Below, in pieces: positions 2,915 through 54,999 of a DNA stretch of 64,000 nucleotides (position 1 is the first letter of the stretch; each line of letters opens with the position of its first letter). The stretch is from contig OX597825.1 in assembly GCA_951406725.2 (NCBI GenBank), positions 83,762,001 to 83,826,000 on the forward strand, given 5' to 3'. Position numbers and translations under genes: made by a program. The stretch comes from Octopus vulgaris. Its lineage: Eukaryota. The notes under the pieces are model-generated. The model saw only the letters and a list, made by a program, of their open reading frames with translations, was not told the origin of the DNA and ran no database searches.

Positions 2915-3004
2915 CACTACAGCTGTTTCAAACGAGTTTTGTTTTTCTATTTTGATTAATAGAGTCATTACATCATGCGAAAATAAAAACACTTTCGTCA
3001 GGTG
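2915..3004 (-). ncRNA. Minimal type-I hammerhead ribozyme motif, intact core
   Basis: Minus strand: cac CTGACGA aagtgttttt...aaaactcgttt GAAA CAGCTG TA gtg; stem I cac/gtg; palindromic stem III ACAGCTGT; GUA triplet. Confidence 0.7.
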
Positions 3005-3240
3005 ATTACACATGAATTTTCTGGCTAACGTCGGTTAAAGAGTAAGAATTCATTGGCTGAAGCTAGCCAGGGAATCTTGAAGTGCCACATAATGTTGTTT
3101 CTTGGAATGTTTCTTTTTAAATGTTTAATTTGTGAATACTCGCCTGATCAACAAGAAAAGCTCAGCTACTGTCAATTGTTTATATATATATATACACATA
3201 TATATATATAGATAGATAGATAGAGAGAGAGAGAGGGGGG

Positions 3241-3550
3241 GGTTATGAGAGGTAATGTTGTCAATAGGACCCAAAGGTTTCAGGTAATGCTGTGTAAGTG
3301 CTATGGACAGACTGTAGTTAAGCTCCAGGTTCGGTGATTATGTGAATGAGGAGTCCAACGTAGGTCATATATTAGTAGGTGTATATATAAAAAAAGTTTC
3401 AGAATCTAAAATAACTATTGCTTAACCATTTTCTCACACCGTCTCAGATGAAGGGATATATAAAATATCCTGGAAACAGCTGTAAGGCCTTCTATTTATA
3501 AATGTTATAAAAGCTTTCACAGGCTTGGATTTTTTATCGCATTCTGAAAA
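3241..3550 (+). mobile_element. Short HHR-bearing element between microsatellites (PLE pLTR/retrozyme-like)
   Basis: Bounded by (TA)/(GA)n and (TA)n; both ends recur in an internally deleted copy at 55814-55870; carries HHR motif at 3441-3488. Confidence 0.6.
3441..3488 (+). ncRNA. Minimal hammerhead motif with one core change (U4A)
   Basis: gtct CAGATGA a GGGATAT ataaa ATATCCT g GAAA CAGCTG TA aggc. Confidence 0.65.
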
Positions 3551-4559
3551 TGTATATATATATATATATATATATATATATATGTGTGTGTGTGTGTGTG
3601 TGTATGTGTATGTGTGTGTGTGTGTGCGTGTGTGTGTGTGTGTGCATAAGTGTGTGTGTATGTATATACATATATATATATATATATATACAATGTATCT
3701 ACAAACTTTTGTAAAAATGAATTGATACACCTCCAATAATTAGAAAAGGATTATTTCCTGGGAGAATCGGATACTTGAATAATAACCACCAGGTAGAGTT
3801 GCACTAACTTGTGGTCACCACGTATGGTTGACTAAATATCCAATAGAATGTTCAGGCTTTGCACACAGAGAAAAAACCAACCCCACGAGTATTTAGCACC
3901 TAGGGTTTGGTCCAAAGCACACGTATTGGTCATACGTAGATGGTACGTTGATCACCCGTGTCCGACGAGTCGCGTATTCTTATGGTGTTTTATGATTATA
4001 ATCAAATGAAAAAAAACAATCGATGAATAAATTTCGATTCATTAAAGCCGTTTCTTACGCATTTTTAATAGCAGAATGAGTAAATTACATCTTTGCAAAA
4101 AATCGTAATCAACAGATGAAACATATAATTTCAAAATAATATTCCAAGAACAAAATGAAGCCAGCTGAAGCTGACCATGGTCAGCTTAGATTCAAAATAC
4201 GTAAGAAATAGCCGTAATGAACAGTCCATTCTCTGTCGTCTGTTTTTATCCATTTGATTTTGTGTATACATGTATGTGTATGCGTGTGTGTGCGTATGTG
4301 TGTTTATGTATGTATACATATACCTGTATCTGTGTGTGCTTGTCCCTCACCAACGCTTGACAAAGTGTGATGTTTTCTTTACGCCTCCATAACAGAGTAA
4401 TTCGGCGAAAAAAAAAAGAGAGCCCCATAGACAATGTTCCGAGCTCCAAACATACGATCAGGGATTGATCTGTTCGTCTAAGACCCTTTCTAGTCGGGGC
4501 CCCAGTAAGGCTGTAGTTCAAAGACTGAAACAAGTAACGAGAAAATAGGAACGTTAACA

Positions 4560-4630
4560 ATTTAAATGGCGGTGCCCCAGCATGGCCACACCTCGTGAGC
4601 TGAAACTAGATAAAATAAAATAAAATAAAT
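4560..4630 (+). mobile_element. 3' tail of CR1-group LINE or related SINE with (TAAAA)n
   Basis: aaatggcggtgccccagcatggcc...gctgaaactaga(taaaa)n; same motif ends the CORE-like SINEs at 39452 and 58722. Confidence 0.55.
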
Positions 4631-5896
4631 TAAACGCACCACTTCATCTAATAAATAATACTTAGCTTTGTTGTTTCATTAGGATAGAATCTCAAGATAA
4701 CGCAATAGCTTCCGACATGATATGATGTATGCAGTGGCCACTTCATCGAATCATACTTTACCTTGGCATCTCTTTATTCATTAATGAAGAGAGCTATTGC
4801 AAGTCTAGAAAACGTAATGACCAGTTGGAATTATTATATTGTCTCGATCGGCTTTAGATCCTTTCGTGATCGTTATAAATTAATTAACTAGATGTTTGTT
4901 CTTTTATTAAAATTACATTTCTAGAAGGATCCAATTTATTTCGAATTAAAAACTTTTTAAATTGCATGCAGTTGGAATATGTGTGTGCGTATGTGTGTGT
5001 GTGTGTGTGTGAGCATGTCTGTCTCTATGTATGAGAGTGCATGTATATGTGTGTGTGTGTTCGTCTGTGTGTTCTTTCATTTGAAGAGGAGTAAAATTTT
5101 GGAATACGAGCTTTTCCAATTTTCTGCAATTTCAACGTGTGTGTGGGTGGGTGTTTAAAGAGACAAACAGACAGTTAGACAAGCAGATAAACAGACAGAC
5201 AAAGAGACACAGTCACACACACAAATAGACAGGTGGATGTGCATACACACACATATATATATACACACACATATATATATATATATATATATATATGTGT
5301 GTGTGTGTGTGTGTGTGTGTATATACATATGCATATAGTTGTTAATATTAACGGCAGGATGCGAACTAACACACGGGACAAACACACTTACACTTAGGTG
5401 CACACGTACACACTCATACAAGCACACATAATTTTCTTGCCGGTGATCATGATCACAATGCAAAGCAACAAAGTTCTGACGCAAACCCAGGATCCCTACG
5501 TGTCAGTAGAGAGAAAAATGATCAGTCCCATTCATAGTTATAAAAAAAGGATCCCCAAAACGTAGAAGATCATATAAAGATTTAATATTGGATTCATTAT
5601 GGAATCGTGCTGTCTTGTGGACATCCTAAGATTTTCATTAAAAAAAGGAAGTCTCACAATTACTATTTGCATTTGTATCGCTCGTTATCGTGCAACAGAA
5701 GCATGCGCCGATATTTTATTTTCGCCATAAAATGAAATTAAAAATGGTTTCGTGTTCGCCGTGACTTTTAATTAAATACATCAGCAGTAAATTATTTAGC
5801 TGAAATTAACGAAGAGAATTATTTCAATTTCTGACTTTGAGTAAGAATGGTTGGATTCTAGTTTATTTTAATTTTATCAATTTACACAGACATATA

Positions 5897-6178
5897 TATC
5901 TATCTATACACACACACACACACACACACACATATATATATATATATATATATATATATATATATATATATTTACATATATATATATATATATGTACATA
6001 TATATATATGTACATATATATACATATATACATATGTATATATGTACATATATATACATATATATACATATGTATATATGTACATATACATATACACATT
6101 AGCAAAATTTTATATATATATACATAAATACGTACACATATATATATATATATTTAAATATGTGTGTGTGTGTGTGTT
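5897..6178. repeat. Compound (CA)/(TA)/(TG) microsatellite
   Basis: Direct reading. Confidence 0.95.
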
Positions 6179-52784: not shown

Positions 52785-52940
52785 TGGCTGTGTGATAAGA
52801 AACTTGCTTCCGAACAACATGGTTCCGTGTTCAGTTCTACCGTGTGGTACCTTAGGTGAATATCTTCTACATTAACCTCGGGTCCACCAAAGCCTTGTGA
52901 ATGAATTTGCTATACAGAAACTGAAAGAAGCTCATCGCAT
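52785..52940 (+). mobile_element. Decayed head of CORE-like SINE
   Basis: tggctgtgtgataagaaacttgcttc...aaagccttgtgaatg...aaactgaaagaagc. Confidence 0.75.
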
Positions 52941-53078
52941 GGTGTACAAGTTGCAAATATCTTAATAATTAATATACAAAATTTCGTCGACTCATTAAAT
53001 TACATGCGATGTAATCTACTGGGCTACTAGTGTATATGTGTGTGTTCTGTATTTATGTTTGTGCATGTGTGTATATAT

Positions 53079-53380
53079 GAGGCGCAATGGCCCAGTGGTT
53101 AGTAGACTTGGGATCGGAGGATTGCGGTTTCGATTCCCAGACCGGGCGTTGTGTGTGTTTATTGAGCGAAAACAGCTAAAAGCTCCACGAGGCTCCAGCA
53201 GCGGGTGGTGGCTACCCCTGTTGTACTCTTTCGCCACAACTTTCTCTCACTCTCTCTTCCTCTTTCTTGCGGAACGCTGCGATGGACTGGCGTCCCGTCC
53301 AGCTGGGAGGAACACATACGTCACAGAAACCGGGAAACCGGGGCCCATGAGCCTAGCTAGGCTTGAAAAGGGTGACGTTT
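53079..53380 (+). mobile_element. tRNA-derived SINE with V-domain-like core
   Basis: A-box tggcccagtgg, B-box gtttcgattcc, core ctgcgatggactggcgtcccgtccag...cagaaaccggg. Confidence 0.8.
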
Positions 53381-53824
53381 ATCGTTATGTGTATATATTT
53401 CGGAATACACTGGTTATACACATCGCATAATCAACATGTGATATGCATTTATCAAACGAACCGACATGTCATAGAACCAACGTGTGTGCACACGAACGTG
53501 GGTGCATGTATGAATATATACACATACATACATACATGGGTGTGTATGCGTAGGGATGTGCGCATATATATTTATATATATTATTTGCGTCATAAGGATT
53601 TAAAAACTATGAACGAAGTGAAATAATTTTTTCTCTGAACAGTGAAGCTTGAAGTAAATAAGCTATAAATGTAGCGTGTAAATGTCGGGTTTAAAACCTT
53701 TGGAGAAAAAAGATAAGACCACTTTCTCCTTTTTGTATCCAGTTAGTTCTTACACCAATATCTATATACTGCATATGTAGCATTATCTACTTCGAGTTCC
53801 ACAGTTAAAAACGAAATATATTGA

Positions 53825-54350
53825 TGTATATATGTGTGTGTGTATGTATATATAATATATCTAGAGATATTATACACACACACATATCATACAATATATA
53901 TATGTATATATATATATGTAAATATGTATATATGTATATATATATATGCATATATGTATATATATATATATGTGCATATATATGTATATATATATATATG
54001 TATATATATATATATATATATGTATATTTATGTATATATATGTATATATATGTATATATGTTTATATATGTATATATATTTATGTATATATATGTATATA
54101 TATGTATATATAAGTATGTATATATGTATGTATATATATGTATATGTATATATATATGTATATATATATGTATATATATATATATATATATATATATATA
54201 TATATATATATATATATATATATGTATATGTGTATATATATATGTATATGTGTGTATGTATATATGTGTATATATATATACATATATATATATATATATA
54301 TATATTTGTGTGCGTGTGTGTGTATGTATGTGTATATATATGTATATGTG
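53825..54350. repeat. Compound (TA)/(TG) tract
   Basis: Direct reading. Confidence 0.95.
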
Positions 54351-54999
54351 CGTGTGAGGTTGATTCGCTCATTTTCAAAGCCCTGTTTAGTGAAAATTGA
54401 GATTGACGTGTTTCGGAATGGTTAATAACATCTATTTTGACTCCATTGTATAAAGGCTGTGGCGCCTACATTTCATCACATTCGAACCCGCATTATCGTA
54501 TTTACGATTTCAAGTGACTTTTGTTAGGGCAATATATAATCAAAAGTTTCCAAAATACTAAAAAGATCTTCAAACGCTGCTTTTCAATATCGGCGCCTTA
54601 CAATGAATAACTGTCATGGCGTCGGTTTGTTTATAAACAGAAAAGAGCGGAAAATCGTCTACGAGATTATTGCACACGCTCGGGAATTTCGATCTACAGG
54701 GACAATGTTCTGTGTATGGAGAGGATTTTCCGTTTATTAATTTTCGTAAATAAACGCTTCTATTTTATTCTATTTTAGACGAAACAGCATACATACAAAA
54801 GCAATGTTTGCATTCAATATGTAATGTCATCAGCATCATTATCATCATCATCATCACTCTTCATAATCGTCATCATCAGCATCAGTATTATCATCATCAG
54901 CATCACTCATCATCATCATCATCATCATAGTCATTATCATCATCATTACTGCTAAGGTGACGTGCTGGGTAGGGCACTTCCAACAAAAGACCGACGAAT

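Follow-up and report, generated by a model that had tools for sequence, protein, structure and literature searches.

The minimal hammerhead ribozyme motifs scattered through a 64,000-nucleotide stretch of the Octopus vulgaris genome (contig OX597825.1, positions 83,762,001 to 83,826,000; G000:C12:83762001-83826000; the whole stretch is referred to as the window) are likely the 3' ends, or pseudo-long terminal repeats (pLTRs), of Penelope-like retrotransposons, present as truncated, solo, and inverted copies of about 10 dispersed families. A preliminary description, made from the letters of the window, had flagged about 16 motifs from several families. Family alignments indicate that 13 of the 16 sites, in 10 families, are hammerhead derived and mostly decayed, and that those at 24624, 45702, and 54399 are not hammerheads. 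The fold, core, and palindrome of the family copies agree with the earlier assignment to minimal type I hammerheads like those of Penelope pLTRs.

Hammerhead motifs exceed chance expectation

The window is AT rich, has 136 tandem-repeat rows, and belongs to an assembly of 2.8 Gb in 227 contigs. The descriptor used for the searches was a type I hammerhead whose core had at most one change or was of the U3-A8 form, with an optional base after A9; stems I and II were required, and stem III had to end in UH. The hammerhead position numbering and the comparisons of genome size between species used here are partly general background. The descriptor matched 13 places in the window, compared with 4.45 ± 2.17 in 200 local dinucleotide shuffles. 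Stem III was palindromic in 5 matches versus 0.33 after shuffling, and none of the 200 shuffles reached 5. Two matches, 2915(-) and 50117(+), scored at least 12 (0.01 in shuffles), beyond all 200 shuffles at this highest threshold. The shuffled control proposed in the preliminary description came out in favor of the motifs. Four of the 16 flagged sites (2915, 50115, 28849, and 30327) satisfied the descriptor.

The same excess was found in 60 evenly spaced 10-kb samples of the genome (600 kb), in which 29 matches scored at least 10 versus 1.08 in 60 shuffles and 36 had a palindromic stem III (ACGT, AATT, ACAGCTGT, ACGATCGT, ACAATTGT, or ACTTCGAAGT) versus 3.2 after shuffling. About one third to half of the low-score matches are expected by chance. 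Two descriptor matches that had not been listed before, at 28378-28430 (-) (score 7.5) and 26320-26389 (+) (score 7), are within the chance range and are without relatives in the sampled loci.

In a genome rich in AT and dense in repeats, the motifs might instead have arisen by chance or be DNA hairpins that belong to inverted-repeat elements. Loose matches do occur, 3 of the 16 sites fail, one descriptor match lay in an abundant unrelated repeat, and Rfam was blank. Hairpins are destroyed by shuffling, and therefore decoy (scrambled) cores were run on real, unshuffled DNA. Strict motifs, defined by an exact core, a palindromic stem III, and stems of at least 3 bp, numbered 24 in the 600 kb with the true core, but a mean of only 0.275 and a maximum of 2 were obtained with 40 decoy cores on the same DNA. 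Furthermore, the core pair covaried across the 24 strict motifs (C3-G8 in 15 and U3-A8 in 9, with neither U3-G8 nor C3-A8 found). The 128 high-scoring copies from all sampled loci fell into 38 clusters, one of which was dropped as chance; the approximately 37 unrelated clusters that remain have the core, GAAA, palindrome, and UH in common and differ in their stems. These results refute the chance explanation for the set, for which its probability is negligible; it applies only to 24624, 45702, 54399, and perhaps 30327.

One cluster (cluster 19; 15 of 26 window places and 87 of 157 sampled places) proved to be a chance match within an abundant unrelated repeat and was excluded from the counts. 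A very abundant short repeat (for example, window positions 13810-14031, 26879-27117, 39877-40117, and 48700-49110) is present in many copies in the window and had 86 matches in the 600 kb; a single copy of it yielded a chance hammerhead match. When decayed copies were included, 70 places were found in the 600 kb and 11 in the window, with a motif library biased to the window's own families.

The Rfam search suggested in the preliminary description gave no hammerhead match in the window at the gathering score. When the window matches were ranked by E-value, the hammerhead family was absent from the best 150 of 383, which were dominated by microsatellite matches to microRNA models.

Families in the window

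The genome was searched with nine of the window sites, and the relatives, which are the best matches to each window copy, were aligned; some rows come from overlapping loci. The features in the window are as follows.

2915..3004, minus strand: family B hammerhead; score 13, CUGACGA intact, long stem II insert, palindromic stem III ACAGCUGU, stem I reduced by drift to 3 bp
3441..3488, plus strand: family F relic; core CAGAUGA, stem III ACAGCUGU
26150..26188, plus strand: family E relic; core letters intact, stem I 2 bp and cut at an inversion junction, palindrome of stem III lost
28780..28946, plus strand: family A short element, about 170-190 bp in length, either a solo pLTR or the end of an element; ends shared among 19 loci
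28849..28884, plus strand: family A minimal hammerhead; score 9, CUGUUGA (A6U), extra A after A9, stems I and II 4 bp, stem III ACGU
30334..30369, minus strand: family J minimal hammerhead; score 7, UUGAGGA (C3U), stem III AUAU
34654..34698, minus strand: family H, U3-A8, left arm of an inverted pair; UUGAAAA, stem III AAUU, stem I 2 bp
34697..34731, plus strand: family H, U3-A8, right arm of the pair; stem III damaged
34971..35033, minus strand: family D relic, left arm of an inverted pair; A9U
35056..35118, plus strand: family D relic, right arm; GAAA changed to GACA, stem I 6 bp, stem III ACUCUGAGU, ending 20 nt before (TA)n
35631..35667, plus strand: family I relic; CUGAAGA intact, GAAA changed to AAAA (G12A) with a 3-nt loss, stem I lost, one intact relative (L012)
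42039..42109, minus strand: family G 3' half; 5' core missing from the window copy
49719..49770, minus strand: family C 3' half; inverted partner of 50117, core deleted
50117..50205, plus strand: family C hammerhead; score 12, CUGACGA intact, long stem II, stem III ACGAUCGU; element at about 50043-50361, ending in (TA)n

An intact core together with all three stems is present at 2 of the 16 sites, 2915(-) and 50115(+). The preliminary description had added 26146, which overstates that site because stem I is only 2 bp and stem III is nonpalindromic; the core letters alone are intact. Among the sites said to have a single core change, 28849 passes, 3441, 34965, and 35050 are damaged relics, 35631 has a 3-nt loss in addition, and 24624 is rejected. 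The U3-A8 pair at 34654/34731 is there as described, as an inverted pair with a stem I of 2 bp, as are the self-complementary stem III sequences ACAGCTGT, ACGATCGT, ACGT, and ACTCNGAGT. Of the sites listed as degenerate or half motifs, 42041 and 49718 are 3' halves and 30327 passes with one change, and the remaining two, 45702 and 54399, drop out.

The window copies are mostly decayed members of families whose cores can be read from their relatives. Cores of the form CUGANGA...GAAA...UH, or the U3-A8 version, are found in most copies of families B, C, D, and H and in the one relative of family I; family E is mixed. Family B has 137 candidates in the genome, and 14 of 23 rows, as counted from the alignment, keep CUGANGA; its relatives have a stem I of 6-7 bp and stem III ACAGCTGT. 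CUGANGA is kept in 19 of 26 rows of family C (204 candidates; stem II up to 12 bp) and in 27 of 29 rows of family D (1263 candidates), with some overlapping loci in both tallies. Family D copies have a bulge at the base of stem II and were mostly rejected by the descriptor; a sister subfamily has one stem I pair altered on both sides. Relatives of families B, C, and D are 72-97% identical. Family E (111 candidates) has relatives with the palindrome ACTTCGAAGT and a longer stem I. Family H, with a U3-A8 core and AATT, was found at 9 places in the 600 kb and has intact relatives at four loci (L039, L046, L068, and L074).

In other families a core change is a family trait: A6U in family A and U4C in families F and G. 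Of 51 rows of family A (1401 candidates) found via the 3' half, 31 have CTGTNGA and 6 have CTGANGA. The 13 rows of family F (2225 candidates) have the cores CCGATGA (9), CTGATGA (2), and CAGATGA (2), and relatives of family G (2330 candidates) have CCGACGA upstream, a 10-bp stem II, and ACAATTGT. The family J site, 30327, is the weakest that was accepted; a single partial relative (L033) stands behind it, and it is perhaps a chance match.

A host function for this layer, in which co-opted copies would cut or regulate host transcripts, is very improbable. The sheer number of copies would favor such a role, since many must fall in introns, but the core or a stem is damaged in 11 of the 13 hammerhead-derived window copies and the relatives drift like ordinary repeats.

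Sites that are not hammerheads

Site 24624 fitted, by eye, neither a type I, II, or III hammerhead nor a ribozyme like that of hepatitis delta virus (HDV); in 14 aligned copies GAAA is a hairpin loop and stems II and III are absent. It lies in a repeat family (window positions 24560-24790; 314 candidates). Relatives in this family show CUGAAGA and, at a distance of 7 nt, GAAA, with no stems; a possible pseudoknot follows. This stemless core pair resembles the "HHR_core" pattern of Naiad elements, and no counterpart of the family was found in the one supplement file searched. Site 45702 was considered as a hammerhead, an HDV-like ribozyme, or a splice-assembled ribozyme, and by eye it has no core; the young family to which it belongs is 97-99% identical and has no CUGANGA. 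That repeat (window positions 45363-46500; 915 candidates) has a partial tandem duplication. The motif itself, at 45685-45755 (-), has one stem of 9 bp and an inner one of 4 bp and may form a knot (GAAGGC/GCCTTC), and it directly follows a pyrimidine run that resembles a splice acceptor; the pairing is kept in a diverged relative (L118). Site 54399 has one other match in the genome and no core.

Link to Penelope-like elements

The most direct link to a coding element comes from family A. At two loci (L169 and L172), copies of family A flank a broken reverse transcriptase (RT)/GIY-YIG gene as direct repeats of 177-185 bp, about 2.97 kb apart and 79% alike over 185 columns. The frame between the repeats has RT, a CxxxxCxxC linker (CSRPRCRTC in L172), and GIY-YIG. 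Because family A is thus the pLTR of a full Penelope-like element, the best account of the short copies is that they are ends of elements, either truncated or solo. The preliminary description had proposed short ribozyme elements mobilized by Penelope-like elements; the association with these elements stands, and a separate class of short elements is not required.

A genome search for GIY-YIG gave 6136 candidates, and 16 of the 150 scored were in open frames of 781 amino acids. In 12 of 30 GIY-YIG loci, a U3-A8 hammerhead of a family absent from the window lies on the same strand, 415-920 nt past the stop codon. A young Penelope-like family (e.g., L127 and L132) has intact frames of 781 amino acids at many loci, and its 3' end carries a U3-A8 hammerhead; L127 has Pfam RVT_1 and GIY-YIG, with the linker CGRPNCGIC. 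This family is a candidate active element, judging from its open frames. Protein fragments were also seen near a family C copy (L110) and a family A copy (L014).

The family A alignment is consistent with the hammerhead fold. In 44 distinct rows of family A and its sister, 95.5% of cells were paired, versus at most 48.5% when the alignment was slid. One stem I pair is switched from C-G to G-C in 9 rows; this switch is one inherited event in one subfamily and therefore gives weak support alone. Dimerization was predicted, in a calculation run without a control, to yield 6-12 kcal/mol of extra stability over two monomers.

Published work suggests how such copies might arise. Two motifs in a tandem parent transcript would dimerize via the palindromes of their stem III, and cleavage would yield RNA of unit length. 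A copy would then be inserted, preferentially at (TA)n, by the endonuclease and RT of the element. Early termination would mostly leave the final 100-300 bases, in many cases beside an inverted partner. Decay of most copies would follow, and lone or head-to-head copies that lack a same-strand partner would probably be silent. Inverted partners were found at 5 loci for family B, 5 for C, 1 for A, and 8 for D, among 19 loci each.

Several results weigh against the Penelope interpretation. The protein search of the window gave no Penelope match, and among the 10 window families only family A could be connected to a parent coding element. A possible link of family B to the gene in L095 was rejected; that gene is associated with a different motif and is not followed by any family B copy. 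Rfam had no hammerhead match in 15 loci with many descriptor matches, including the tandem array of L021 described below. Little covariation is seen within families (1 of 9 pairs in family A). The predicted minimum-energy folds of five window copies as monomers lack the full hammerhead. Finally, judging from results on A6C and U4C in PMC3088659, poor cleavage would be expected of cores with fixed A6U or U4C. No natural A6U family was found in the literature searched, coverage of which was partial.

Cleavage was weak in published work, even with dimers (PMC4209133), and 8 of 9 Xenopus retrozyme dimers failed to cut (preprint 10.64898/2026.07.22.740005). Most window copies are probably silent and inert because most are damaged and have no same-strand partner. 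No RNA run was listed as covering window positions 34594-35135.

Proximity to microsatellites

Among 23 motifs in the genome samples, the median distance to the next microsatellite on the 3' side was 174 nt, versus 492 nt for random places (p=0.001). On the 5' side the medians were 210 and 476 nt, a difference that was not significant (p=0.12). In the window, 8 of 13 motifs lie within 150 nt of a microsatellite on the 3' side, against a background of 22%. The "microsatellite-bounded islands" of the preliminary description are therefore half right, as closeness is significant on the 3' side only. The window also has a 20-bp minisatellite of about 88 copies (61392-63151) and a long (TGAG)n array (56306-56971).

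Possible non-autonomous units

It is possible, at a probability well below that of the Penelope pLTR interpretation, that many of the short families are themselves non-autonomous units, either non-LTR retrozymes or mini-elements, and use Penelope enzymes to move via small, possibly circular RNAs. Family A copies have a 5' end near 28780 that is common to most loci, and the preprint 10.64898/2026.07.22.740005 derives retrozymes from pLTRs. A true tandem array with 7 intact hammerheads does exist outside the window:

L021:2272-4548 (G000:C1, near 20.00 Mb): tandem and inverted array, 359-bp unit, bounded by (TA)n

The seven hammerheads have a stem I of 6 bp, a stem II of 4 bp, and ACCGGT. From its sequence, the array fits a non-LTR retrozyme directly. 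Contigs of two presumed-RNA runs join the end of the L021 unit to its start, but such a joint also arises from tandem DNA, and a DNA-like run (X19) shows the joint too. The contigs of the two presumed-RNA runs carry U3-A8 versions of the motif, whereas the assembly has C3-G8. The comparison with runs used contigs only, which indicate presence, not expression or RNA ends. However, there are no tandem arrays at the window sites, direct partners occur in only 0-2 of 19 loci per family, and family A also flanks a coding element. The existence of non-autonomous units overlaps with the Penelope pLTR interpretation and may hold for some families.

Comparison with known systems

Minimal hammerheads in the pLTRs of metazoan Penelope elements were described by Cervera and De la Pena in 2014 (PMC4209133), including their architecture, the U3-A8 form, the extra base, opposite-strand pairs, and dispersed singles. 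The O. vulgaris motifs share with these the type I fold, short stem I, extra base after A9, palindromic stem III, and U3-A8 form, as well as the occurrence of many families per genome, mostly as dispersed singles, with pairs 3 kb apart around a gene and opposite-strand pairs. In contrast to that account, several families here have stem II inserts of 50-80 nt, palindromes of 8-12 nt, and fixed A6U or U4C changes. The count also differs, at about 80,000-110,000 here by a descriptor other than theirs; PMC4209133 gives about 2,000 plus 1,300 for Schistosoma, 4,000 for coelacanth, and 9,000 for Xenopus, with Lottia and Crassostrea in the supplement.

The order of RT, CxxxxCxxC linker (CX2-5CxxC), and C-terminal GIY-YIG, with a hammerhead pLTR near the 3' end, is like that of Neptune/Nematis-type elements (PMC8557442, Craig et al. 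2021). The same paper describes 5' truncation, inversion, and microsatellite targeting of Penelope-like elements. Its cephalopod Naiads lack canonical hammerheads, unlike the elements here, which were compared by linker and domain order. Non-LTR retrozymes number about 5,000 copies in mussel and up to 120,000 in axolotl (PMC7229834, Cervera and De la Pena 2020; preprint 10.64898/2026.07.22.740005). They resemble the families here, and L021 most directly, in being noncoding repeats with type I hammerheads, but the window copies are single or in inverted pairs, with no head-to-tail arrays.

The preliminary description knew of no account at this density in cephalopods. Much of the ground is in print, as 235 Rfam Hammerhead_1 loci in giant squid, for which the available part of the paper draws no Penelope link (PMC6962438); as 31 recently active Penelope-like families in O. 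vulgaris itself, in a paper whose main text does not mention ribozymes (PMC13282606); and as the mollusc minimal hammerheads of PMC4209133. The giant squid loci come from Rfam models, which miss the forms found here.

A genome-wide layer

Scaled to the genome, the strict motifs number 112,000 (bootstrap, 47,000-196,000), or 81,000 (43,000-123,000) when one tandem array is left out. The window, with 2 strict motifs versus 1.8-2.6 expected per 64 kb, has an ordinary density for its genome, and the hammerhead layer is genome-wide. A cephalopod hammerhead count this high was not found within our partial coverage of the literature. Only the estimated number, around 100,000, stands out and seems unreported; the kind itself was already described in 2014.

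These results reveal no new mechanism. The remaining interest is in the motif count and in the abundant families with fixed core changes. We speculate, with considerable doubt, that few animal genomes match this one in hammerhead density, at about 30-40 intact motifs per Mb, and that some of its most successful Penelope families spread with impaired cores (A6U and U4C). Either cutting would be dispensable and the fold a signal for the element's protein, or impaired copies would be cut in mixed dimers by an intact sister family with the same ACGU palindrome.

O. vulgaris joins the animals in which Penelope hammerheads are scattered through the genome, here in numbers that escape standard Rfam annotation. 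Its approximately 37 families, young coding element, and core-variant families provide a natural library for testing the role of the ribozyme in Penelope transposition.

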